Below are positions 36,324-52,180 of a stretch of 64,000 nucleotides of DNA, in pieces. Both the position numbers and the translations under genes were made by a program. The number at the start of each line of letters is the position of its first letter. The first letter of the stretch is position 1. The notes beneath the pieces are model-generated. The model saw only the letters and a program-made list of their open reading frames with translations. It was not told where the DNA came from and ran no database searches. The stretch comes from an uncultured Anaerolineales bacterium (lineage in GTDB: Bacteria; Planctomycetota; Phycisphaerae; FEN-1346), in the NCBI GenBank assembly GCA_964539385.1, contig CAZIJC010000001.1, forward strand, positions 16,860 to 80,859, read 5' to 3'.

Positions 36324-38855
36324 TTACACAACGACCTCGTTCACGCCTGTCGGCAGGTTCCACGTGCGGCCGACCGTATTATAGGTGATGGTGCCGGTGC
36401 CGACCGACTCGGCGCCGAAGCACAACCGCCGGATCGTCCACACGTCCAACGTGCTATTGTTGATGAAGTAGTTGACGCCTACGCCGCGGACGTACATCAA
36501 GCCCAACGTGGCGTGCGTGCCGGCCGGGATCACCGTAGCCAGCGAAATGGCGGAGTTGTCGATCGCGCCGGCATAGATTGAACGGACATTCGCGTCAAGA
36601 GTCAGACCGGAACCGTTGATCGTGCCGAGCACGGCGACCCTTGCAGCCGAGCCATCGATGTCCCAGGCGGCATTGATCAGGTCGCCACCAACGCGGGCCG
36701 TGCCGAGCGTGTGCCGTCCCGCAATCAGATTCCCGGCCAGGGTCAGGTCCAGGCTGTTGACGTCGCCGGTGGCCCTGAAGTGGTTGATCGAGGGGGTCGT
36801 GATAACGTCGGCGACGCCGCCGCTGTCCGTCCAATCCTGGGCGATCAGCCAGCCGACGGGCGTGCCCGACGTGACAACCAGATCGATCACGCTGCCCAGG
36901 CGCATTGAGAGCGTATCCCTGGCCCCGACCTGCGCGCCGACCTGGACCTCGCCGCCGTTCACGTCGTTGAGCCAGAGTAACCTGAGCGTGCCCGGCACGT
37001 CGATCAGGCTGCCCCCGGCCCCATCGTCCACAAAATCAACGGTGGGGGCATGGATGCGGCCGAGCGAGCCGTCCCAGGCGAGCCCGACGTCGTCGTCCAC
37101 GGTAATGCTTTCGACCTCCGTCGTCACGCCCCGGGCCGTCCTCATGGCGAATGCCGACCGCCTCGTCGTTTCGTACAGGGTCACGTCGAAGCCGTTCACG
37201 CCGTTGGCCACCTCGGCCCAGGACCCCCTCATCACGAAGGTCACGAGGTCGCCGTTGGGGTCCTCGATCTGCATTCTGGAGTTGGGGTGGGCCGCGTCGA
37301 AACTGCCGAACTTCCACACGATGGCGGCCTGGTTGGCGGCCGCATCGGTGTTGTTGGTCTCGTCGGCTTCGGCGATGGTGTCGCCCGAATCCACGACGGC
37401 CAGGACGTTGTAGTTGCCGGCCGGGATGTCCGCCGGCACCTGGCTCACGAGCCAGTAGGTCCTGGCCTGTCCGGCCGTGAGGGAGATGCGGCACGTGCGC
37501 TGGCCGAACAGGTAGTCGCCGCCGTCAATGACGCCGTCTACGGACCCGTACAGTTGGATGGTGGCCAATCCGGACGCCGTTCCGGCGCCGCCGTTGGTAA
37601 CCGCGACGGGAATCCGCCACCTGTCGCCGGGAATCTGCTCGGCGCCCGTGACGAAGGCATCGTCAATCGCGATCGTCAGGTCCGGGCCGACGCCCAGGGT
37701 GCCGACGATCGAGGCATTGTTGGCCTCGGAGTACTCGGTGACGCCGCCGGGCTGATCGGCCACGCCGAACAGCGTGTACCCCTGGCCGCCCGCAGGCGCG
37801 TTGAACGAGATCGTGTCGGTCGTGTCGGCGCCGGCGGCGAGCGTGGTCACGTTGTAGGAGCCGACCTGGGTATCGGCGCCCGCGTCGAAGGTGCCGTCGG
37901 TCGAGGTCCAGAGCGACACCGTCCACGGAGTCACGCCTGGGTCGCCGTCGTCCTCGGCGACCGCGAAACCGGCATTGTTGACCTGCACGGGCACGTCAAC
38001 CTGTTGACCAGCAGCGGCCTGATACACGGTTGCCGCCGCCTCGATCGTCAGGTCCGGCCCGACCGACAGGGTCCCGAGCGACGCCGTGTTGTTGGCGTCG
38101 TCATCCTCGGTGACCTCGGTGTCGGAGTCGGCGTAGCCGAACAGCGTGTACTCGCCGGGCACGGGCGCGGCAAAGGAGATCTGGTTCGCCGTGCTGTCCT
38201 GGCCATCAAGGGTCGTCAGGTTGTAGGAGCCGACCTGCGTATCGCCCGCGTCCCAGATGCCGTCGGTCGAGGTCCACAGCGACACCGTCCACTGGCCCAC
38301 CCCCGGGTCCACGTCCGTGACGGCCTGGGCGAAGCCGGTGTTCTCGACCGTGACGTCAACGTCCACGTTGGCGCCCTCCGCCGCCTCGTACGCGCCGGCC
38401 GCGCCCTGGATCTCCAGGTCGATGCCGACCAGCAGCGTCCCGACGATCGACGTGTTGTTGACCTCGGAGTTTTCGGCAACCTCCTCGTCGGAGTCGGCAA
38501 AGCCGAACAGCGTGTACGTGCCGGCCGCAGGGGCGTTGAAGGTGACCGTGTCGGTGGTGTCGCCCGCGGCAGCAAGGGTCACCACCTCGTAGTTGCCGAC
38601 GTTGGTGTCTTCCCCGGCGTCGAAGACCGCGTCGGCCGAGGTCCAGAGCGACACCGTCCAGAATCCGTCAACGGCTTCCGCGGCGGCATCGCCGATATTG
38701 TTCACCTGAATGTCAACATCGACACCCACGGCACCGCTGAGCGCCTCGTACGTGTCTGCCGCCGCCGTGATCGTCAGGTCTGCCGCCAATAGCAGGCGCG
38801 ACTCCAACGCCTCAAAACCGGGCTTTATGCCGCTTTTGTCGCTGTTTCTGTACAT
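36324..38855 (-). CDS. Secreted repetitive protein with four CARDB-like repeats of about 100 aa and a C-terminal beta-rich domain
   Basis: 843 aa. N-terminus MYRNSDKSGIKPGFEALESRLLLAADL. Internal repeats of the pattern WTVSLWTSTDG..DAGDTQVGSYN.TTL...FNAP..G.YTLFG.AD. No Cys-rich motifs. Confidence 0.6.
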   Translation of the reverse strand: MYRNSDKSGIKPGFEALESRLLLAADLTITAAADTYEALSGAVGVDVDIQVNNIGDAAAEAVDGFWTVSLWTSADAVFDAGEDTNVGNYEVVTLAAAGDTTDTVTFNAPAAGTYTLFGFADSDEEVAENSEVNNTSIVGTLLVGIDLEIQGAAGAYEAAEGANVDVDVTVENTGFAQAVTDVDPGVGQWTVSLWTSTDGIWDAGDTQVGSYNLTTLDGQDSTANQISFAAPVPGEYTLFGYADSDTEVTEDDDANNTASLGTLSVGPDLTIEAAATVYQAAAGQQVDVPVQVNNAGFAVAEDDGDPGVTPWTVSLWTSTDGTFDAGADTQVGSYNVTTLAAGADTTDTISFNAPAGGQGYTLFGVADQPGGVTEYSEANNASIVGTLGVGPDLTIAIDDAFVTGAEQIPGDRWRIPVAVTNGGAGTASGLATIQLYGSVDGVIDGGDYLFGQRTCRISLTAGQARTYWLVSQVPADIPAGNYNVLAVVDSGDTIAEADETNNTDAAANQAAIVWKFGSFDAAHPNSRMQIEDPNGDLVTFVMRGSWAEVANGVNGFDVTLYETTRRSAFAMRTARGVTTEVESITVDDDVGLAWDGSLGRIHAPTVDFVDDGAGGSLIDVPGTLRLLWLNDVNGGEVQVGAQVGARDTLSMRLGSVIDLVVTSGTPVGWLIAQDWTDSGGVADVITTPSINHFRATGDVNSLDLTLAGNLIAGRHTLGTARVGGDLINAAWDIDGSAARVAVLGTINGSGLTLDANVRSIYAGAIDNSAISLATVIPAGTHATLGLMYVRGVGVNYFINNSTLDVWTIRRLCFGAESVGTGTITYNTVGRTWNLPTGVNEVVV

Positions 38856-39123
38856 GGCAGTCTCCTATCCAGCATCAGAGATTATCCCAGCCTAGATTGC
38901 TTTGGGAGCGCTTTTCCTGTTTCGGCAACATCGCGCGCGGCCGGCCACTTTTTTCTTAAAAAAGGGCGAATTATCCTGACGACCTGCGGCCAAGCCTCAA
39001 GCGCCCGAAAACCACGCCTCAAGACACGCCGCCGGCCACTCTTTGCATTAAAAACCTTGGAATCGCTGTTTGCGAGAACGTGGAGTGCCTTCGGGGCTCC
39101 AACTCCGGGTTGCGAAACTGTCC

Positions 39124-39152
39124 TTGACAGGCCCCAGGCCATTCAGTCTAGT
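39124..39152 (+). promoter_or_regulatory. Candidate sigma-70 promoter (TTGACA, 17 bp spacer, TCTAGT) for the TolB/cytochrome gene
   Basis: Perfect -35 and a 4/6 match at -10, about 50 nt upstream of the ATG at 39201. Confidence 0.3.
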
Positions 39153-39200
39153 GAACTTGCCGCTTTGACGTGCCATCGAACCGTGCAGGACGCCGCTGCC

Positions 39201-41669
39201 ATGATGCGCTCAGTCCTCCGTTTTCGTGCCCGCGGCATCCCGGCCCTGGCTGCTGCGGCCCTGATGACGTCCGTGGCGACGACGGCAGCCGTTGGGGAGA
39301 CCTACACCTGGCAAGACGAGAATCAGGCTCAGTTCGCTACCCTGCAGCGTCTCATCACTGAGTTCAAGAAGAACCCGTCGGGCCACCTTGCGGCCCAGAC
39401 GTTCCGGTCCGAAGCGCTGATCCTGGCCTCCGACCGCGACCCGGCCGACGTCGTCCTTCGCCGAACGGCCGCCCTGCTTGCTGCGCTGAAACGCATGGCC
39501 GGCGCCCCGGACCTGGCTGCCGAAGCGGGCACACTCGAGCGTCTCCAGGCCGAAAGCGCCGCCATCAACGTCAAGGAGACACAGGCGCGGCGCGACCTGT
39601 TCGACAAGGCATTGCGTCTGCGCCGCACGATCGCCTTCTCGAACCCGCTGCTGGACTTCGACCGGATCCTCTTCATCAAGCGACACTTCCTGCCCGGCTC
39701 GCACCGCCAGGGCAACCATATGTGTGACCAGTACTACGGCTTTCATGCGATTCGCGGCGGCGGGGTGTTTGTTTTGGAGGACGCCCTCTCGTCCAAGCCG
39801 ACCGCGCGGAACGTCTTGGCCGACTCGCTCTGCGCAAGCGGCCGCTTCAAAGGCAAGCCGCTCCCTCCCGGCGGGTACCTGTCGCCGGAACTCTCTTTCG
39901 ACGCCCGGACCGTCCTGTTCGCCTTCACGGAGGCCGAGCCGTCGCACTACAAGTGGAGCGAGCGGAGCACGTATCACATCTTCAAGGTGAACGTCGACGG
40001 ATCGAATCTCGTGCAACTCACCGACGGTCCTGCCGGCGACTTCGACCCCTGCTGGCTGCCGAACGGGCGGATCGTGTTCATCTCGGAACGCCGCGGCGGC
40101 TACGGCCGGTGCCACGCCCGGCCCGTACCCATCTTCACCCTCCACACGATGGAAAGCGACGGCACCGACATCGTCTGTATCAGCCGCAACGAGTCCAACG
40201 AATGGCATCCCAGCGTGGACGCGAGCGGCATGATCGTCTACACGCGGTGGGACTACGTGGACCGCGGCCACAGCCAGGCCCACCACCCGTGGATCACCAC
40301 GCCCGACGGCCGCGACGCACGCGCCATCCAGGGCAACTTCGGCAAATCGATGCGTGTCCGGCCGTTCATGGAAATGGACATGCGGGCCATCCCGGGGTCG
40401 CACAAGTACATCGCCACGGCGGCGGCCCATCACGGTCAGGCGTACGGGTCGCTCGTCGTGCTCGACCCGTGGATCGAGGACGACGACGCCATGGCGCCGC
40501 TGAAGCGTCTGACGCCCGACGTCTGGTTCCCCGAGGCGGAGCGCGGCGAGACGGTCTACGCCAGCGCCTGGCCGCTCGGCGAGGCGTTCTACCTGTGCGT
40601 CTGCGACTTTAACGCCACCCGCGGGGGCGGGCCGAAGAACAACTTCGGCATCTACCTGCTCGACGCGTGGGGCAACAAGGAACTCCTTTACCGCGACCCG
40701 GCCATCTCGTGCCTGAGCCCCATCCCGCTACGGCCGCGCAGGCGCCCGCCCGTCATTCCGCACGTCACCGCTGAGGGCAGGCCGCAGGTGACCCGGGCGA
40801 CACCCGACACGTCGGGACCGCCCCCATCGGATCCGCCCCGGACGGCTCCCGTCGGCCTGATCAACGTGTACGACGGCTTCAAGCCCTGGCCCGAGGGCAC
40901 CATCATCAAGGCCCTGCGCATCATCCAGGTGCTGCCGAAAGCCACGCCTGTCCACAACGTGCCCCGCATCGGATATGGTTCCGAGAAAGGCGCGCGGGCC
41001 GTCCTCGGCACCGTGCCGGTCGAGGCCGACGGCAGCGCCTATTTCAGCGTGCCGACGGGCAAGGTCGTCTTCTTCCAGGCACTGGACGCGCGCGGCCTGG
41101 CGGTCCAGTCGATGCGCAGTTGCACGTACGTCCATCCGGGCCAGCGGCTGGTGTGCCAGGGCTGCCACGAACCGCGTCACCGCGCGCCGGCGCCGCCGAA
41201 GCGGTTTGCGCTGGCCATGCGCCGGCCACCGTCAGACATTCAGCCGGACGTGGCGGGCTCGAACCCGTTCAGTTTCCCGCGACTCGTTCAGCCCGTGCTC
41301 GAGCGCCACTGCGTGGCGTGCCACGCCAAGGAACCCAAGGCGATGGACCTCGGCAAGGGCGATGCCGGAAAGAACCGCTACGGCTGGTACACCTCCTACG
41401 CCAACCTGAGGACCTACGCGTTCTATTTCGGGAAGTTCGAAGCGACTTACGACGGATGGACCCTGCCGCGGACCACGCCGGGCGAGTTCGGCGCACGGGC
41501 CTCGAAACTCTTCGCGCTTCTTGAGAAGGACCACTACGCAGTCAAACTCTCGAAGGCGGACCTCCATCGCATCACCCTGTGGCTGGACTGCAACTCCGAC
41601 TTCCTCGGCTCCTACGACGACCCCGAAGCCCAGGCGCGCGGCCAGATCGTCCGCCCGACGCTCCAGTAG
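39201..41669 (+). CDS. TolB-like (PD40/WD40-like) beta-propeller protein with C-terminal diheme c-type cytochrome domain
   Basis: Tool ORF 39057..41669. Start at MMRSVLRFRARGIPALAAAALMTSVATTAAVG, a signal peptide. PD40-like blocks (NGRIVFISERRGG, SDGTDIVCIS). Two CxxCH heme-binding motifs (CQGCH, CVACH) in the last about 200 aa. Confidence 0.65.
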   Translation: MMRSVLRFRARGIPALAAAALMTSVATTAAVGETYTWQDENQAQFATLQRLITEFKKNPSGHLAAQTFRSEALILASDRDPADVVLRRTAALLAALKRMAGAPDLAAEAGTLERLQAESAAINVKETQARRDLFDKALRLRRTIAFSNPLLDFDRILFIKRHFLPGSHRQGNHMCDQYYGFHAIRGGGVFVLEDALSSKPTARNVLADSLCASGRFKGKPLPPGGYLSPELSFDARTVLFAFTEAEPSHYKWSERSTYHIFKVNVDGSNLVQLTDGPAGDFDPCWLPNGRIVFISERRGGYGRCHARPVPIFTLHTMESDGTDIVCISRNESNEWHPSVDASGMIVYTRWDYVDRGHSQAHHPWITTPDGRDARAIQGNFGKSMRVRPFMEMDMRAIPGSHKYIATAAAHHGQAYGSLVVLDPWIEDDDAMAPLKRLTPDVWFPEAERGETVYASAWPLGEAFYLCVCDFNATRGGGPKNNFGIYLLDAWGNKELLYRDPAISCLSPIPLRPRRRPPVIPHVTAEGRPQVTRATPDTSGPPPSDPPRTAPVGLINVYDGFKPWPEGTIIKALRIIQVLPKATPVHNVPRIGYGSEKGARAVLGTVPVEADGSAYFSVPTGKVVFFQALDARGLAVQSMRSCTYVHPGQRLVCQGCHEPRHRAPAPPKRFALAMRRPPSDIQPDVAGSNPFSFPRLVQPVLERHCVACHAKEPKAMDLGKGDAGKNRYGWYTSYANLRTYAFYFGKFEATYDGWTLPRTTPGEFGARASKLFALLEKDHYAVKLSKADLHRITLWLDCNSDFLGSYDDPEAQARGQIVRPTLQ

Positions 41670-41963
41670 CCAGCGAAGAACGCAGGAGACGAGCGGGGCT
41701 GGGTAAGTCTCACCCGGTCGGCCTCCGCACCGACCGGGCAAACGCCAAGATGACGCGGCGGCTGCGGAGGCCCGCCGTGCACCAGGTGAGCACAGCCTGC
41801 CTGAACCCGCTTGGGGCGCAAGCGCATCCGGGAACCGGCGCCCGGTTGCCTGGAACGCCGGGCGGTGCCGGCGCGTCTAACTCCGTGAGACGGCGCTTCA
41901 TTTGGGCGACCGAAGGCGCCACACTCAGCCGTATAAGAGGATGGACACGCAGGAGGCAGAGCC

Positions 41964-43454
41964 ATGGCAAGCGATTTCAGGCCCGTTGAGCAGCCGGCGG
42001 TCAAGACCACGATCGTTGGAGGGCGCCCGCCCGGCAGCGGCAAGGCGGTCGGCCCCATCCCGCGCGGCATCGAAGTGCTCATCAAGAAGGCCGCCGTGGA
42101 CCCCGACTTCAGGGCGCTCCTGCTCGCCAAGCGCGATGAAGCGGCCGGCCAGATCGGCCTGACGCTGGACCCGGCCGAGGCGATGATGCTCAAGGCCGCC
42201 CCCACCGCACAACTCGAAGCGATCATCGCTCAGACAAACGTCCACCCCAGCGTGCTGCCAGCGTTCCTCGGCCGTGCGGCCGCCGTCATGCTCGTGGCCC
42301 TCGGCGCCGGAACACTCGGCTGCGAGGACGACGTCGCAACTTTGGACATCGAACCCGACCGGCCGTCGGCCAAGAAGGTCGAGCCGCCCCAGAACATCCC
42401 CGCACCGGAAGGCGTCCGCCCCGACCGGCCCCAGGCAGTTGAACGGTCGCCGGGCATCCGGCCTGATCGGATTCCCACGCCGCAGCCGCCGAAGCCGGCC
42501 GAGCCCCGGATCAAGGCGCCCCAACGCATCGAGCCGACCGACGGCATCCGTCCCACGCGCCCCCCCGAGGCCAAGCCGAAGGCCGAGACGCCGAAGCCTC
42601 CCGCGCCCACGGGCATCCGCCCGGACAGACCGCCGACCGCCAGGCCGCCCGACGCCGCCGAGAACAAGCAGTCTCAGGCGCCCCGATCGACGGCCACAGA
42701 ACCGGTCACCTCGACGCCCGTCTCCGACGAACGGATCACGCGCGGCATCCGGCCCGACCGGCCGCCCACGACCAAGGGCATCCGGCCCGACAAGCCGCAG
42801 ACCAAGCCCAAAGAAGACGCGCCCCCCGAGAAGAAGCCGATCATCAGCCGGACCCTCACGCTCCCGGCCAAGTGGAACGAAAAGGCGGCCTACGACAACC
42901 TCGCCAAGGGCCTGAAGCGCCTGGCCGACAAGCACCTGCCGAAACACAAGTTCATCTACTCGGTGGCCGACTCCGGGCAGCGGTACATCCGCGTCGAATT
43001 CAAACCGAAGGTGCACGACGTACCGACCACAGACCGCAAAACCGGCGAGACGGAAATCCGCCGCAAGACCGGGCCCGAGGCCGATGGCCTCCTGCTGACT
43101 GTCTGGATCGAAAAGCGTCTGATCGAAGCCGACCGGCCCCACGTCCGCGACAACGCCGGCCTCTGGAAGACGAAGGTCGACCAAGTCTTCCTGCGACCGC
43201 GGAAGACGTACCTGAAGTTCAACCTGCATTACGGCCCGAAGACGGACAAGGGGCTGATCGCAACGTTCTCGTCGCCGTCCGGGTGGGTCAACAGCGCATC
43301 GGAAGCAGCCCTGACGACCAAGGTGTATGCGCCGACCGTAGCGGCTGCACCTTCTTCTGCAGGGGGTGCTGCCTGGAAGTTCGAGACCCCCGGCAGGGTG
43401 AACCAGCGGGCCACGTACGCCGGCTCGTTCGGCATATCGCCGGATCGGCCGTAA
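41964..43454 (+). CDS. Pro-rich repeat protein with at least eight G[IV]RP[DT][RK]P heptapeptide repeats, an internal TM/lipobox-like segment and a C-terminal globular domain, hypothetical
   Basis: AGGAGG SD 6 nt before the ATG. Repeats GVRPDRP, GIRPDRI, GIRPTRP, GIRPDRP x3, GIRPDKP, plus a terminal GISPDRP. Hydrophobic AAAVMLVALGAGTLGC lies at about residue 100. Confidence 0.55.
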   Translation: MASDFRPVEQPAVKTTIVGGRPPGSGKAVGPIPRGIEVLIKKAAVDPDFRALLLAKRDEAAGQIGLTLDPAEAMMLKAAPTAQLEAIIAQTNVHPSVLPAFLGRAAAVMLVALGAGTLGCEDDVATLDIEPDRPSAKKVEPPQNIPAPEGVRPDRPQAVERSPGIRPDRIPTPQPPKPAEPRIKAPQRIEPTDGIRPTRPPEAKPKAETPKPPAPTGIRPDRPPTARPPDAAENKQSQAPRSTATEPVTSTPVSDERITRGIRPDRPPTTKGIRPDKPQTKPKEDAPPEKKPIISRTLTLPAKWNEKAAYDNLAKGLKRLADKHLPKHKFIYSVADSGQRYIRVEFKPKVHDVPTTDRKTGETEIRRKTGPEADGLLLTVWIEKRLIEADRPHVRDNAGLWKTKVDQVFLRPRKTYLKFNLHYGPKTDKGLIATFSSPSGWVNSASEAALTTKVYAPTVAAAPSSAGGAAWKFETPGRVNQRATYAGSFGISPDRP

Positions 43455-43502
43455 GTAACAGGAGCGCCCGTCCGCTTCGGTGACACGCAAGGGACGCGTA
43501 AC

Positions 43503-44981
43503 ATGGCCGCCGACATCACGCTCGTCAACCTGAACATGCTCTTCATGCGGTACGGCGAGGAGGTCGAGCGGGAACTGCACGTGCCGCTCGGGCCACTGTA
43601 CCTCACGCGGGCCCTGGAGGATGCCGGGTTCGAGGTCGATTTCCGCGACTACCAGGCCGCCCCCTACGACGACCCGTTCGACTTGGAGAACTTTCTGGAG
43701 TTTCTCTCTCGGCCCGCCCCCATCATCGGTTTCTCGTGCATGGCCAACCTGCTGCCGTTCACGATCCACGCCATGCGGACGGTGAAGCAGCGGTGGCCCG
43801 ACCGCACGCTCGTTCTCGGCGGCGTGGGATCGAAGGCCGTCGAAGAGAAGATCCTGGCGCGGTTCCCGTGGGTCGGCATCATCTCGCGCGGCGAGAGCGA
43901 ACGCACGGGGCCGGAACTGGTGCGCACGCTGCGGGACGGCGGCGACCTGGGCGCTGTCAAGGGCATCTCCTGGCGCGCGGGCGGCACCGTTCATCACAAC
44001 CCGCGGCGCGAACGGATCACGGACCTCGACTCCATCCCCTTCCCGGCGTTCCACAAGGTGGCCCTCTCGGCCTACGCCGGCTACGGCATGATGACGAGCC
44101 GCGGCTGCCCGTATCCGTGTACGTTCTGTTCGGTCGCCCCGGTCTGGAACCACGAGAGTTACTCGCGCTCTGCCGAGAACATCGTCGCCGAAATGGTCCA
44201 TCTGCACCGCGAGGCGGGGGTGGACCTGTTCCTGTTCCAGGACGAGTTCTTCGTCTCGGGCAAGCAGCAGGTGATGGACTTCTGCCGCGAACTCCGCGGG
44301 ACGGGCCTCGCCCTGGAATGGAAGGCCTTCGGCCGCGTCAACCTGGTCGATACCGAGATGATGCAGGCGATGGCCGACGCCGGGTGCCTGGAACTGAGGT
44401 TCGGCATCGAGTCGGGCAGCGACCGCGTGCTCAAGCGGATCAAGAAAGGCTTCACGGCGGCCGAGGCCCTGGACGTGGTGCCGAAGGCCGTCGGAATCTT
44501 CCCCCGGGTCGATACGTTCTTCGTCTGGGGGTTTCCGTTCGAGACGATGGACGATTTCAACCGAAGCCTGTTCCAGATGGTGAGTTTCCGAATGATGGGG
44601 GCGCGGATTCTGCCGAGCCTCCTCTCGCTCCTGCCCCAGACCGAACTCTATAAAGAGTGGGCGCCGAAGGTGGACCTGGAGTTCTGCCCGCACCTGCTGC
44701 CCGAGTTCGTGTTCACGGGGCACGAAATCTGCCGCGGCGGCGACGTGGAGATACCGGACCGTTACCAGGAGTACTTCGATCTGATCCTGGCGAACCCGGA
44801 TATCTTCGCCGGGTTCTTCCACATCGCCCTCGAAGGAAACGTGCTGCCGAAACTGGCGCTGCTGCGGCAGTTCGGTTTCTATCCCGTTCCCGAGGGCGAA
44901 GAGGAGCCGAGCACTGAATCGTGCGGCGCCCACTCGCCCCGCATCGAACCGCAGGAACTCGCCACCAGGACCGAGCGGTAG
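43503..44981 (+). CDS. B12-binding domain radical SAM protein (class B rSAM, putative methyltransferase)
   Basis: 492 aa. N-terminal cobalamin-binding Rossmann domain (ITLVNLN...PLGPLYLTRALEDAGFEVDFRD). Radical SAM cluster motif SRGCPYPCTFCS. Confidence 0.8.
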   Translation: MAADITLVNLNMLFMRYGEEVERELHVPLGPLYLTRALEDAGFEVDFRDYQAAPYDDPFDLENFLEFLSRPAPIIGFSCMANLLPFTIHAMRTVKQRWPDRTLVLGGVGSKAVEEKILARFPWVGIISRGESERTGPELVRTLRDGGDLGAVKGISWRAGGTVHHNPRRERITDLDSIPFPAFHKVALSAYAGYGMMTSRGCPYPCTFCSVAPVWNHESYSRSAENIVAEMVHLHREAGVDLFLFQDEFFVSGKQQVMDFCRELRGTGLALEWKAFGRVNLVDTEMMQAMADAGCLELRFGIESGSDRVLKRIKKGFTAAEALDVVPKAVGIFPRVDTFFVWGFPFETMDDFNRSLFQMVSFRMMGARILPSLLSLLPQTELYKEWAPKVDLEFCPHLLPEFVFTGHEICRGGDVEIPDRYQEYFDLILANPDIFAGFFHIALEGNVLPKLALLRQFGFYPVPEGEEEPSTESCGAHSPRIEPQELATRTER

Positions 44982-45050
44982 AGACGCCGGGTGGCACTGG
45001 CGGCTTGTCCGCCCGTGGGCCGCGCAAGAGAGTGACATGGCGTTGCAGGG

Positions 45051-46178
45051 TTACACGCCGACGGCATCGAGGACGGCGTCGGCGACTTCGTTTTGTTGGG
45101 CCAGCGAGAGTTCCGGATAGATCGGAAGCGCCAGGACCTCACGCGACGCCGCCTCCGACTCGGGCAAGCCGCCTTCCTGGTACCCCAGGTCGGCAAAACA
45201 TGCCTGAAGGTGCAGCGGCACCGGGTAATAGATGGCGTGGCCGATCTTCTTCTCCTTCAGGTGCTCGACCACGCGGTCGCGCATGCCCGCCCCGCCGCCT
45301 GAGTCGGTGATGCGGATGACGTATTGGTTGTATATCATGCGGTTGTGTTGCCGGACGTGCGGCGTCACGATTGTCTCCCGCGCCGCGAACGCTTCGTCGT
45401 AGCGAGCCGCGTTGGCTCGACGCGCCTCGTGCCACTGTTCCAGATACTTCAGTTTGGCCGTAATGACGACCGCCTGGATCGGATCGAGGCGGAAGTTCCC
45501 GCCCACGTACCGGTGATAGTACTTGGGTTTGGAGCCGTGATTGCGCAGGACCGTGCACTGCTCGGCCAGCGTCGCGTCGTTCGTCACGATCATGCCGCCG
45601 TCGCCCACCCCGCCGAGGTTCTTGGAGGGGAAGAACGAAAAACACCCCGCCGTCCCAATCGAGCCGGCCTTGCGTCCCTTGTACGTGGCGCCGATGGCCT
45701 GTGCGGCGTCCTCGACTACCGCCAGACCGCGCGGCCGCGCCACCTCCATAATCGGGTCCATGTCCGCCGCCTGACCGAACAGGTGCACCGGCAGGATCGC
45801 CTTCGTGCGGTCCGTCACCGCCCCCTCCACCAGCAAGGGGTCGATGTTGAACGTCTTCGGATCGATGTCCACGAAGACGGGCCTGGCGCCCGTCCGCACG
45901 ATGCAGCCGGCCGTGGCAAAGAACGAAAACGGCGTCGTGACCACCTCGTCGCCGGCCCCGATGCCCAGGCTCATCAGGGCGTTCAGGATGGCGTCGGTGC
46001 CGCTGGAGGCGCCGATGCCGTACTTGCATTCGGAGTAAGCGGCCACGGCCTTCTCGCACTCGACCACCTTCGGGCCGCCTATGCAGCGCTGCGTTTCCAG
46101 CACCTCATCCACCGCCGCACGCACCTCCTTGCGAATCTCGTCGTACTGCGCCACCAGGTCGAGCAACGGAACCGCCAT
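45051..46178 (-). CDS. DegT/DnrJ/EryC1/StrS family PLP-dependent aminotransferase (sugar aminotransferase)
   Basis: Tool ORF 45051..46193, start at MAVPLLDL. Full-length similarity to ArnB/WecE-type enzymes (GASSGTDAILNALMSLG, FSFFPSKNLG). Confidence 0.8.
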   Translation of the reverse strand: MAVPLLDLVAQYDEIRKEVRAAVDEVLETQRCIGGPKVVECEKAVAAYSECKYGIGASSGTDAILNALMSLGIGAGDEVVTTPFSFFATAGCIVRTGARPVFVDIDPKTFNIDPLLVEGAVTDRTKAILPVHLFGQAADMDPIMEVARPRGLAVVEDAAQAIGATYKGRKAGSIGTAGCFSFFPSKNLGGVGDGGMIVTNDATLAEQCTVLRNHGSKPKYYHRYVGGNFRLDPIQAVVITAKLKYLEQWHEARRANAARYDEAFAARETIVTPHVRQHNRMIYNQYVIRITDSGGGAGMRDRVVEHLKEKKIGHAIYYPVPLHLQACFADLGYQEGGLPESEAASREVLALPIYPELSLAQQNEVADAVLDAVGV

Positions 46179-46270
46179 GGGTTCTCCTTCCATTTACGTG
46201 GGATCAATCGGCATCCACCGGATAAAAGGGGGAGTTCCAACGCGTGCACGCGAAATCCTGCAGAATCCTC

Positions 46271-50154: not shown

Positions 50155-50201
50155 GCCGATAGGGAAGCGAGAGAACCTTGGCACCAACAAGGAGCAGCGC
50201 C

Positions 50202-51179
50202 GTGACTGGAACAGGTAAAGCCCGGGCGGGGTTCAGCCTGATGGAAATCCTCATGGCCGTCGGAATCCTCGGCGTCGGGATGACCATGGTGGCCTCGGTG
50301 TTCCCCGTGGCGGTGGACCAGAGCCGCCGCAGTCGCGACCTGACCATGGCGGCCCTGAGCGCGCGCAGCGTGGCGGCGGCCTTGCGCGCTCGCCGCCAGG
50401 AAGTGGTCAATGCGCTGCGAGATGCGAATACGGAGAGTGCGTGGGGAACCTTTGAGGATGGCGCTGATGCGAAGACACCCAGGACGGCGCGGTTAGACTC
50501 AGACCAAACGCCGACAGGCTCGCAGGCAGGGCTACTACCGCCACTTCCGCGGGAACTGCGGTCTTACAACCCCAGGGGTTTCCTTTACGACGACAGTGCC
50601 GATGGCGGTGGAACAAAGAGCGCCCGCCAGTACAGCGCCAACCTGGAAGGGATAGACGGCCTGTGGAGCGCCGGCAGTTATGTCCCGGTCGTTTTCGCCA
50701 CACCCATCAGCAACGACCCGAACGATAACGAGACCAACAAGGCGGGCCACGGCCCCTGGCGGATCACCATCATGATTTACAAATCGCGAGGGCAACAGCC
50801 CGACTACCTCAATCAGAATCCGTCGTCCAGTTGGGTCTGGAACCAGAGAAAGGCGAGCGCCAAGAACCCCGGAGGCGCCGGCAGTTACGTCATGGACTGG
50901 CGGTTTTCGGGCGGCTCCCAACAGATGAACAACCGCGGCGAGGCGTACAAGGTGCAGCGGCATGTTCCGCTGACAACGCGGCAGGACGCTGTCGTTCCCG
51001 CCGTCGCATTCAAGAAGGCCCCGGGAGCAAGACCCGGCTTCCCCTTTTTTAATGCATTCGTGGCCGGCGGCGACCAGAGCAAAGGCACGGACTGCTACAG
51101 CCTGACCAACAGCATTCCCTCCGAGTGGGTCAGCCTGCCCGGGGCCATCGCCGCCTATCACACCATATTGGGAGACTGA
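50202..51179 (+). CDS. Pseudopilin / prepilin-type N-terminal cleavage-methylation domain protein
   Basis: GTG start with an AAGGAG SD. N-terminal KARAGFSLMEILMAVGILGVGMTMVASVF is the class III signal (GFxLxE plus a hydrophobic helix). Confidence 0.65.
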   Translation: MTGTGKARAGFSLMEILMAVGILGVGMTMVASVFPVAVDQSRRSRDLTMAALSARSVAAALRARRQEVVNALRDANTESAWGTFEDGADAKTPRTARLDSDQTPTGSQAGLLPPLPRELRSYNPRGFLYDDSADGGGTKSARQYSANLEGIDGLWSAGSYVPVVFATPISNDPNDNETNKAGHGPWRITIMIYKSRGQQPDYLNQNPSSSWVWNQRKASAKNPGGAGSYVMDWRFSGGSQQMNNRGEAYKVQRHVPLTTRQDAVVPAVAFKKAPGARPGFPFFNAFVAGGDQSKGTDCYSLTNSIPSEWVSLPGAIAAYHTILGD

Positions 51180-51181
51180 CC

Positions 51182-52180
51182 GTGAAGCGAGCGCGACCAG
51201 TCAGGCGAGCAGGCCGCCGCACGGCCTTCACACTCGTCGAACTCGTGACCGCAGCGTCTCTGATGACGGTCATCATGCTCGGCGTTGTCCAGGTGTTCGG
51301 CATCGTCATGCAAACGGCCTCCGACGCCGAGGGCATTCACTTCGCCCAGCAGCAACTGCGGGCGCTGCTCAACCGGCTTCACAACGACCTGCGCGGCATG
51401 ACCCGCGAGGGGTATCTGCAGATCAGGCGCGGCAGCACCCAGCCGACGGGCGCCTCCTACACCTTCAACCCGTCTCCGGGCAACCCGATGCCCGCAAGCG
51501 CGTACGCTTGCGATACGCTGGCCTTCGTCACGATCGGCCAATGCGCCAGCGCTTTTCACGGAAACGCCGACGCCAACACCGCCGAGGTCGTCTATACCAA
51601 CAACGTGAAGACCCCTGAGAACCCCCTCCATGTCGACGGCAGGCCGGTAGACGCGCGGCGCGGCATCCTCGCCCGCGGCGAGTGGATCATAGCAGGCAAC
51701 AGCAGTCTCGCCGGTAATGCCACCGATGGGGACGATATCTCGGCGGCGACGTTTCTCTACGACATGTTCAGAAACCAGCAGAACTTCGGCAGCGACGACC
51801 GGATCTCGATGTCCGGCGGGCACGTCGTCGTCCACCCGTGGATCGCCACAGAGAACCTCCCCCCCGATCAATGGCGCACCTTGAAGCGCGTCATGGCCTC
51901 CTGCGTCAGCGAGTTCCACGTCGAGGTCTTCGATCCGAATGCAGACACCACCGGAACGCTCACCGGGTATTTCAACACCCCCGAGAACCAGTACAGGTAC
52001 ACGTGGTCATGGAGACCGAACGCCAACGATACCATCACCACCTGGCCCCGCGCCATTCGCGTCACGGTGGCCGTCCACGATCCGGCCGACACCGACCTGC
52101 CCCAAACAGACCGCACCGGCGCGGTCAAACGTTTCCGCGGCTTTGCCTTGCAGGAGGTCTTCTGGCTGACCGACCCGTAG
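51182..52180 (+). CDS. Pseudopilin / prepilin-type N-terminal cleavage-methylation domain protein
   Basis: GTG start 2 nt after the upstream TGA. N-terminal RRTAFTLVELVTAASLMTVIMLGV. Confidence 0.65.
   Translation: MKRARPVRRAGRRTAFTLVELVTAASLMTVIMLGVVQVFGIVMQTASDAEGIHFAQQQLRALLNRLHNDLRGMTREGYLQIRRGSTQPTGASYTFNPSPGNPMPASAYACDTLAFVTIGQCASAFHGNADANTAEVVYTNNVKTPENPLHVDGRPVDARRGILARGEWIIAGNSSLAGNATDGDDISAATFLYDMFRNQQNFGSDDRISMSGGHVVVHPWIATENLPPDQWRTLKRVMASCVSEFHVEVFDPNADTTGTLTGYFNTPENQYRYTWSWRPNANDTITTWPRAIRVTVAVHDPADTDLPQTDRTGAVKRFRGFALQEVFWLTDP

Follow-up and report, generated by a model that had tools for sequence, protein, structure and literature searches.

A leader-bearing protein paired with a B12-binding-domain radical SAM enzyme as a candidate two-gene module for the modification of exported proteins

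The window analysed here, the whole 64-kb stretch taken from contig CAZIJC010000001.1, carries two adjacent genes, A and B, which encode a 496-residue protein with a recurring heptapeptide motif and a 492-residue radical S-adenosylmethionine (SAM) enzyme with a B12-binding domain. We consider it somewhat probable that these genes form a self-contained two-gene module for the leader-guided radical SAM modification of exported proteins at the motif G-x-R-P-D-x-P. The module is marked by the architecture of the gene A protein, a strict two-way pairing of the genes, a motif that recurs across the family and the class of the enzyme. From these sequence patterns we strongly infer that gene A encodes the substrate of the gene B enzyme. 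The two genes stay together in many phyla of uncultured anaerobic bacteria and most likely represent an undescribed system for the chemical modification of exported proteins. The features of the two genes are as follows.

41951-41956, plus strand: Shine-Dalgarno sequence AGGAGG, 7 nt 5' of the gene A ATG (read from the sequence)
41964-43454, plus strand: gene A, 496-residue leader-bearing precursor and substrate candidate (open reading frame list, homologues)
42006-42035, plus strand: N-terminal box TTIVGGRPPG, residues 15-24 (invariant in orthologues and in 10/10 diverse members)
42066-42224, plus strand: NHLP-like (nitrile-hydratase-like leader) helical domain, residues 35-87 (profile matches, AlphaFold)
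42261-42323, plus strand: signal-peptide-like hydrophobic segment AFLGRAAAVMLVALGAGTLGC, residues 100-120, ending in a lipobox-like TLGC (read from the sequence)
42324-42842, plus strand: disordered Pro-rich region, residues 121-293, with seven motif copies including one degenerate (pattern search, AlphaFold confidence)
42849-43298, plus strand: folded alpha/beta passenger domain, residues 296-445, specific to this orthologue group (AlphaFold)
43431-43451, plus strand: C-terminal motif copy GISPDRP, residues 490-496, the last of the protein (pattern search, orthologue alignment)
43503-44981, plus strand: gene B, 492-residue B12-binding-domain radical SAM enzyme (open reading frame list, Pfam)
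43578-43919, plus strand: B12-binding (Rossmann-like) domain, residues 26-139 (PF02310, E 3.6e-12)
44106-44129, plus strand: radical SAM cluster motif C202-P-Y-P-C206-T-F-C209 (invariant in 26 homologues and 12 divergent members)
44919-44939, plus strand: conserved C-terminal tail S-C-G-A-H-S-P, residues 473-479 (invariant in 26 homologues)

Gene B follows gene A after 48 nt, on the same strand and in the same frame, and this arrangement recurs across genomes. In five context look-ups with increasingly distant homologues, a gene for a B12-binding radical SAM protein of 491-493 residues lay just downstream each time, among otherwise unrelated neighbours. An enzyme-first scan of one genome per species gave 54 loci, all from metagenome-assembled genomes (MAGs), distributed over the Planctomycetota (Phycisphaerae, Pirellulales, Thermoguttaceae, Brocadiia), Lentisphaerae/Victivallales, Verrucomicrobiae, Coatesbacteria, Thermodesulfobacteriota/Desulfomonile, Omnitrophota, Armatimonadia and Myxococcales. 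At 50 of these loci, one to six same-strand leader genes, recognized with a hidden Markov model (HMM) of the gene A N-terminal module (N-module), lie directly upstream of the enzyme gene; at the remaining four the enzyme gene is within 600 bp of a contig end, so that pairing is found at 50/50 loci with usable upstream sequence. The reverse, leader-first search used only the N-module to retrieve 80 metagenomic loci, of which 48 show the enzyme downstream, 30 break off within 600 bp of the last leader gene and two lack the enzyme despite sufficient sequence, corresponding to 48/50 loci with usable downstream sequence. The two leader genes that have no radical SAM partner (L120 661-1968, with none within 9 kb, and L138 177-1046, with a convergent gene within 655 bp) could be orphan paralogues that depend on an enzyme in trans. 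When the remaining open reading frames of the 54 genomic loci were clustered all against all, no additional family appeared in more than eight loci, and the conserved unit therefore consists of leader gene(s) and enzyme only. An earlier sequence-only reading of this DNA had put forward a repeat-bearing substrate with a cognate radical SAM modifier, and the pairing across phyla supports that proposal at the level of gene association. It had also suggested a check of co-occurrence, which was thereby run in both directions; the loss of pairing in relatives that it had named as counting against its proposal was not seen.

Leader genes also accumulate in tandem. Six consecutive leader genes precede the enzyme gene on Coatesbacteria chromosome CP070755.1, and four do so in a Planctomycetes MAG; a series of tandem paralogous precursors before one enzyme is a typical arrangement of a cassette for RiPPs, peptides made on the ribosome and modified after translation. 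Arrays of four to six paralogues with a single radical SAM gene (L006 6847-10853 on CP070755.1, L007 202-3709 and L124 7254-10980) mix members with and without the TTIVGGRPPG box and have passenger lengths of 45-300 residues. We rejected as Rosetta-stone evidence an apparent substrate-enzyme fusion of 1004 residues (L064 1788-4826, KPJ71271.1, Planctomycetes bacterium DG_20), which is probably an assembly artefact because a segment of about 45 residues is duplicated at the junction and the C-terminal tail of the substrate is absent. Separately, small proteins lie beside some of the radical SAM genes, downstream at L017 11875-12863, L026 4250-5613 and L058 8944-9555 and upstream at L047 8208-9035. 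They combine a weak NHLP-like N-terminal domain with a hydrophobic helix and a pilin-like QYR.EYG.Y domain. G-x-R-P-D-x-P is absent from them, and they are a possible second class of substrate.

The gene A protein, which the sequence-only reading had correctly described as a 496-residue product with a strong Shine-Dalgarno sequence, belongs to a large family defined by its N-module. A homologue search found 291 proteins that share this module, of which about 35 are full-length orthologues (45-78% identity) and the remainder share only the first approximately 120 residues. Its consensus reads EQxAV[RK]TTIVGGRPPGxGKxxGxIPRGIEVLVKKAAVDPxF...LDPAEAxML...QLExII..T.V.P..R.AFLGxAAAVMLxALG. A phmmer search with the 125-residue N-module returned 1322 representatives of 50%-identity clusters at E <=1e-3, 799 of them at E <=1e-10. 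Among the 150 matches listed, the module is always N-terminal, and a few proteins have two tandem modules; P0037, P0268, P0289, P0314 and P0342 carry tandem modules ahead of the hydrophobic segment. No curated NCBIfam or Pfam model is specific to either partner, and our literature search (covering the motif, the box, NHLP with cobalamin radical SAM enzymes in these phyla, and PF14407/Os1348) found no description of this system; TMcin, encountered in the literature on RiPP precursors that contain a transmembrane segment, is unrelated to it.

NHLP is the leader type of proteusin precursors, and several profile comparisons connect the N-module to it. Residues 35-87 of gene A match NF038399 at 32-35.5 bits (cut-off 40), with E 1e-7 in the full protein and with E 8e-9 and 35.5 bits in the N-module alone; Pfam Frankia_peptide and, at a weak level, nitrile hydratase alpha match as well. 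Every one of these scores is below its curated cut-off. Ten out of ten diverse N-modules match the NHLP clan model NF038399 (best E 4.4e-10), and the same ten include matches to NHase_alpha (6/10), nitrile_alph (3/10) and mod_pep_NH_fam (1/10). Judging from these profiles, the N-module is likely to be homologous to NHLP at the clan level, but on the curated cut-offs it does not count as a member of the Os1348 family. AlphaFold, run on gene A with 23 orthologues, predicts helices at residues 34-90 with a predicted local distance difference test (pLDDT) score of about 80. The helical, NHLP-like N-terminal domain of the earlier reading is therefore borne out by profile matches, albeit below curated cut-offs, in all ten members and by the modelled helices. 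No motif copy is as well conserved as the TTIVGGRPPG box that precedes this domain, and box and motif have G-x-R-P in common. Of 262 leader genes, 165 contain the box pattern [TI][IVL]VG[GAS][RQK]P, and 137 of 139 loci have one or more such genes, the two exceptions being truncated contigs. The box could be a recognition sequence, a pseudo-substrate or a true modification site.

Behind this domain of about 95 residues, AFLGRAAAVMLVALGAGTLGC resembles a signal peptide in its n-, h- and c-region-like parts and has a lipobox-like Cys, C120, that is invariant among orthologues. The earlier description of a transmembrane or lipobox-like segment holds for the position, residues 100-120, and for the TLGC, and the element is better described as an internal signal-peptide-like segment. 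In gene A the T-L-G-C comes after an Arg and a hydrophobic stretch, and its Cys stands at residue 120, compared with a usual position within about 35-40 residues of the start; the segment reads L-P-A-F-L-G-R, without the twin arginine of the Tat (twin-arginine translocation) consensus S/T-R-R-x-F-L-K. Signal-like features extend across the 174 family members that can be anchored on the F-L-G element. A Cys follows the Phe at a distance of 17-21 residues in 118 of them, with a lipobox-like context in 106 of those 118; members that lack this Cys often end the segment in AxA-like sequences. RRxF[LM]G, which resembles the twin-arginine consensus, is present in 60/174.

The region beyond the signal-like segment is variable in the family. 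In the AlphaFold model of gene A, residues 113-293, which contain the repeats, are disordered (pLDDT <50 over the Pro-rich region), a confident alpha/beta domain occupies residues 296-445 (pLDDT ~90), as the sequence-only reading had anticipated in placing a C-terminal domain after the repeats, and a disordered tail ends in the last motif copy. The alpha/beta domain is conserved in orthologues; elsewhere in the family other passengers take its place, including TonB_C or AgmX/PglI, ExbD, ACP-like, CarbopepD_reg-like and HEAT-like repeat domains, or only Pro-rich linkers. Leader and motif persist while the passenger domains interchange. A fold search of the Protein Data Bank (PDB) with the gene A model found no significant neighbour for the passenger domain (best E 4.6e-3), and we do not interpret the START/lipocalin-like resemblance of that best match.

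The motif itself is present in gene A as GVRPDRP at residue 150 (nt 42411), GIRPDRI at residue 164 (42453), GIRPTRP at residue 194 (42543), GIRPDRP at residues 217 (42612) and 261 (42744) and GIRPDKP at residue 272 (42777), together with the C-terminal GISPDRP and a degenerate copy, DIEPDRP, at residue 128 (42345). The sequence-only reading had counted at least eight near-identical GIRPDRP repeats. Eight copies exist in a loose sense, but 'near-identical' is slightly generous because only two are exactly GIRPDRP. Each copy spans 21 nt, and the copies are short peptide motifs set in differing linkers rather than a DNA tandem repeat. The seven matches to G[IV][RS]P[DT][RK][PI] in gene A compare with a mean of 0.0003 and a maximum of 1 in 20,000 shuffles of the protein. 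In the terminal copy, G490, P493, D494, R495 and P496 are invariant in 23 orthologues.

We extended the motif analysis to the family, using unbiased k-mer counts in the post-leader regions of 115 distinct proteins relative to the expectation from composition. GIRPD is enriched about 1564-fold and RPDRP about 404-fold. The family logo is P-x-[TSP]-[TRK]-G-[IVS]-[RQ]-P-D-[R/x]-P-[P], with Asp in 84% of the G..P..P instances. A strict G..PD.P copy occurs in 82 of the 115 proteins and a looser version in 95. The first copy mostly lies 3-10 residues beyond the hydrophobic segment, and 57 of the 115 proteins have a copy no more than 12 residues from the C-terminus. Because the motifs are in predicted disorder, they would be accessible to an enzyme. 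The size of the family, the interchangeable passengers, the tandem precursor arrays and a TTIVGGRPPG box that is better conserved than the repeats all go beyond what the sequence-only reading had described.

Gene B was described in that reading as a class B radical SAM enzyme 48 nt downstream of the repeat protein, and both Pfam domains score above their gathering cut-offs (PF02310 B12-binding, 46.6 against 32.1 bits; PF04055 Radical_SAM, 61.3 against 29.5). It belongs to the superfamily of radical SAM enzymes with B12-binding domains (class B type). The enzymes of different phyla are 66-87% identical, and the sequences recovered number at least 1462. The N-terminal domain has a single near-invariant Cys, C79, and the S-C-G-A-H-S-P tail is present in 72 of 77 full-length enzymes. 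No NCBIfam model reaches its cut-off; the best-scoring is ApyD, followed by BchE, HpnJ and TIGR03975. We accordingly rejected membership of the ApyD, TIGR03975, HpnJ/HpnR, BchE and RimO/MiaB families, for all of which the scores are below the curated cut-offs. The solved proteins nearest in sequence are AprD4 (the best PDB sequence match), CysS, MgmA, TokK and OxsB. With an AlphaFold model of pLDDT 73 and predicted TM-score (pTM) 0.77, Foldseek identified OxsB, TsrM, CysS, TokK, MgmA and AprD4 as PDB neighbours (TM-score ~0.55-0.6, 16-19% identity); the top matches OxsB, TsrM, CysS and TokK have a probability of 1.00, and MiaB is a lower-ranked neighbour. AprD4 is not known to require cobalamin, and the fold alone is therefore no proof of cobalamin use. 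As an observation apart, the radical SAM enzymes without the tail (L041, L055, L104 and L140) pair with proteins that have HEAT-like LIxQLDSDxFxxRDAA repeats, TQPASQPA linkers and degenerate motifs. The suggestive covariation between the tail and the motif Asp was retained as a lead but kept out of the evidence, since there are only three to four tail-less enzymes and one of their substrates still has Asp-containing variants.

Taken together, these features suggest a mechanism, of which the target motif, the reaction chemistry, the order of events and the cleavage are the more tentative elements. The precursor would consist of a cytoplasmic leader (the TTIVGGRPPG box and the NHLP-like domain), an internal signal-like segment carrying a lipobox-like Cys, and an exported passenger region with P-x-T-x-G-[IVS]-[RQ]-P-D-x-P-P at both ends and at points in between. 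The gene B enzyme would dock on the NHLP-type leader in the cytoplasm, and 5'-deoxyadenosyl radical chemistry would then alter a residue in the disordered motifs, most plausibly the Asp or else a flanking Pro or Arg, with C-methylation as the favoured reaction. The modified protein would be exported by Sec, or by Tat in some members, after which signal peptidase II or I would cut off the leader together with the signal segment to leave a lipid-anchored or periplasmic envelope protein. The loci would need no dedicated protease or transporter because a general signal peptidase would remove the leader. A wider claim is possible, although we hold it with less assurance than the module itself: this would be a widespread and unrecognized form of envelope-protein modification in uncultured anaerobes (the Planctomycetota-Verrucomicrobiota-Lentisphaerae group, Coatesbacteria, Desulfobacterota, Omnitrophota and others), in which one B12-domain radical SAM enzyme, directed by an NHLP leader fused before a signal peptide, would place a new modification on the Asp, Pro or Arg of a portable motif, with signal peptidase as leader protease. 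The logic of RiPP biosynthesis would then reach full-length exported proteins with exchangeable domains as an entire class.

By analogy, the system may be regarded as proteusin-type logic (an NHLP leader and a B12-binding radical SAM enzyme) crossed with the signal peptide use of bufferins. In proteusins of the polytheonamide type, the precursor has an NHLP/Nif11 leader, and the C-methyltransferases, PoyB/PoyC among them, are B12-dependent radical SAM enzymes. The common features are a nitrile-hydratase-like leader on the precursor and an adjoining gene for a radical SAM enzyme with a B12 domain, and a proteusin precursor is modified at several sites. However, gene B scores 105.4 bits against a TIGR03975 cut-off of 281.85, and the precursors here are 150-800 residues long with a signal-like segment and folded passengers, in contrast to the short cores of proteusins. 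In a further difference from proteusin/NHLP systems, the leader runs into a hydrophobic signal-like segment rather than a Gly-Gly-type cleavage site, and among the 54 loci there is no epimerase, C39 peptidase-ABC exporter or other conserved partner. Bufferins and other RiPPs modified by MNIO enzymes carry Sec signal peptides, about 16% of which are lipoprotein signals in Buf2, and some are protein-sized; bufferin-type precursors undergo modification in the cytoplasm before Sec exports them (PMC12452194). They share with the present system a signal peptide in place of a dedicated leader protease. They differ in that their enzyme is of the MNIO superfamily, acts with a partner protein and targets Cys motifs, and in that their signal peptides are N-terminal, whereas here an NHLP-type leader of about 95 residues stands ahead of the signal segment.

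Among individual enzymes, ApyD of the aminopyruvatide pathway (NF050148) is the best-scoring curated family for gene B (E 1.4e-52) and aligns over the B12 domain and the radical SAM core. The similarity is limited: gene B reaches 179 bits where the cut-off is 750, the alignment covers no more than profile positions 20-393 of 645, and the substrate motif of ApyD is G-Y-L-Y-D, as opposed to G-x-R-P-D-x-P. The cobalamin-type radical SAM enzymes that act on methyl-coenzyme M reductase, MgmA (a glutamine C-methylase) and Mmp10 (an arginine C-methylase), resemble the proposed activity in targeting a residue of a full-length protein. MgmA is a structural neighbour of gene B (9ccb), and TIGR04014 is a weak HMM match (82 against 360 bits). 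Unlike the gene B system, these methylases are archaeal, use no leader domain, modify one site of a folded enzyme and are not strictly paired, as adjacent genes, with a family of variable substrates. RimO, which methylthiolates Asp88 of ribosomal protein S12, hints at Asp as the target: this radical SAM enzyme acts at the beta-carbon of an Asp before x-Pro in an exposed loop, and it is a weak sequence match to gene B. On the other hand, RimO/MiaB have a three-Cys auxiliary cluster domain and a TRAM domain that were not detected in gene B, the N-terminal domain of which matches B12-binding instead, and their models reach only 33-43 bits against cut-offs of 355-357, with only the radical SAM core aligned. 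The B12 radical SAM enzymes of proteusins are C-methyltransferases. ApyD likewise C-methylates a peptide residue, giving beta-methyltyrosine, and differs from gene B in being an RRE-containing (RiPP recognition element) protein, a feature with no counterpart in gene B (PMC11117315). It is only because of these two precedents that C-methylation is favoured.

The proposed module draws its support from the two-way pairing, the tandem arrays, the NHLP matches, the interchangeable passengers, the motif enrichment, the position of the motifs in predicted disorder, the likeness of the enzyme to ApyD and MgmA, the family-wide signal-peptide features and the precedent of bufferin precursors with Sec signals. 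Several points weigh against it. Twenty of the 115 family members lack even a loose motif, and the motif-less members mostly hold degenerate forms such as GIRPMP, GARIDRP, GIRADAP and GSRPI. The NHLP matches of the N-module are below the curated cut-offs (35.5 against 40 bits), a lipobox about 120 residues from the N-terminus is in an unusual position, and ACP-like passengers are normally cytoplasmic. Modification before export would require a signal peptide to be held back. Methylation is a guess because radical SAM enzymes with B12 domains also carry out cross-links, ring contractions and dehydrations, and some work without cobalamin. Finally, the box, being cytoplasmic and more strongly conserved than the motif copies, could be the real target.

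This last point leads to an alternative that we judge unlikely, namely that the enzyme modifies the cytoplasmic N-terminal box TTIVGGRPPGSGK, which could control export, cleavage or stability, while the motifs are unmodified structural or binding elements of envelope-spanning linkers. The box is the only conserved element that is surely in the same compartment as the radical SAM enzyme, and its invariance in orthologues and diverse members, its presence in at least one carrier at 137/139 loci, its G-x-R-P in common with the motif and the existence of box-bearing members entirely without a motif would all be consistent with its being the target. Strong conservation is, however, equally expected of a leader recognition sequence, and the box is absent from 97 of the 262 leader genes, which nonetheless retain both the NHLP domain and the motif and still sit in the array ahead of the enzyme. 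Modification of the box also leaves unexplained why the motif tracks across unrelated passenger domains.

It is less likely again that the enzyme acts on the motifs without methylating them, through a C-C or C-heteroatom cross-link (inside one motif, or joining the first copy to the last), an epimerization or a rearrangement, with the Cys/His tail in a catalytic role. There is precedent in PbsB, a B12-binding radical SAM enzyme that cross-links carbon to carbon in a RiPP (PMC12257519). The passenger typically lies between two motif copies, one past the signal segment and one at the C-terminus, and S-C-G-A-H-S-P is kept in 72/77 enzymes, with the few tail-less ones paired to degenerate-motif substrates. 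Set against this, the tail-motif correlation comes from three to four loci only, the motif lacks the aromatic or Cys residues on which known radical SAM cross-links are built, and the closest characterized relative of gene B is a methyltransferase.

Lipid-modifying radical SAM enzymes with B12 domains include hopanoid methylases, ladderane enzymes and tetraether enzymes; a non-protein substrate, with gene A as a membrane anchor or adaptor that recruits the enzyme for the modification of lipids or envelope glycans, is nevertheless improbable, for although gene B has a weak NCBIfam likeness to HpnJ, HpnR and the ladderane-lipid B12 radical SAM enzyme (E 1e-15 to 1e-30, far below cut-offs), gene A has a membrane segment and the lineages involved have unusual envelopes, an adaptor role fails to explain up to six tandem paralogues, interchangeable passengers, an NHLP-type leader homology and an enriched motif, no lipid-biosynthesis gene is among the conserved neighbours at the 54 loci, and the best-scoring curated relative of gene B modifies a peptide.

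Upstream of gene A in the window, 39057-41669 (plus strand) encodes an unrelated protein of 870 residues with HZS_alpha and PD40 matches, in which a hydrazine-synthase-alpha middle domain is combined with a PD40 beta-propeller and the C-terminal CxxCH-type sequences CQGCH and CVACH; proteins with this mix are common in Planctomycetota, and the gene is not kept beside the module in other genomes. Downstream of gene B is a convergent gene for a DegT-type aminotransferase (45051-46193). Further away, 36324-38855 (minus strand) encodes an unrelated large surface or secreted repeat protein of 843 residues with an LEPR-XLL N-terminal signal-type domain and four CARDB repeats, and two adjoining genes at 50178-52180 (plus strand) have the prepilin-type N-termini FSLMEILMAVGILGV and FTLVELVTAASLMTV, which suggests a pseudopilin or type IV pilin-like cluster. 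A 1037-residue antisense open reading frame that spans both module genes (41925-45038, minus strand) was rejected as a high-GC shadow because the homology and HMM signals are all in the plus-strand frames. A promoter and terminator scan of 41500-45300 detected no promoter-like site, and neither the motif nor the N-module was found elsewhere in the 64-kb window.

If the pairing of the two genes reflects a real modification, it would define a minimal and very widespread two-gene family of substrate and enzyme, and would add a new reaction or target motif to the repertoire of B12-type radical SAM enzymes. NHLP leaders would then be seen at work on protein-sized substrates that bear signal peptides. 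Because the module is small, comprising a leader, a seven-residue motif and one enzyme, it is directly testable and potentially a tool for tag-directed protein modification. For the organisms themselves, the system would point to a so far unrecognized chemical feature of the cell envelope in anaerobes that are poorly understood and mostly uncultured.

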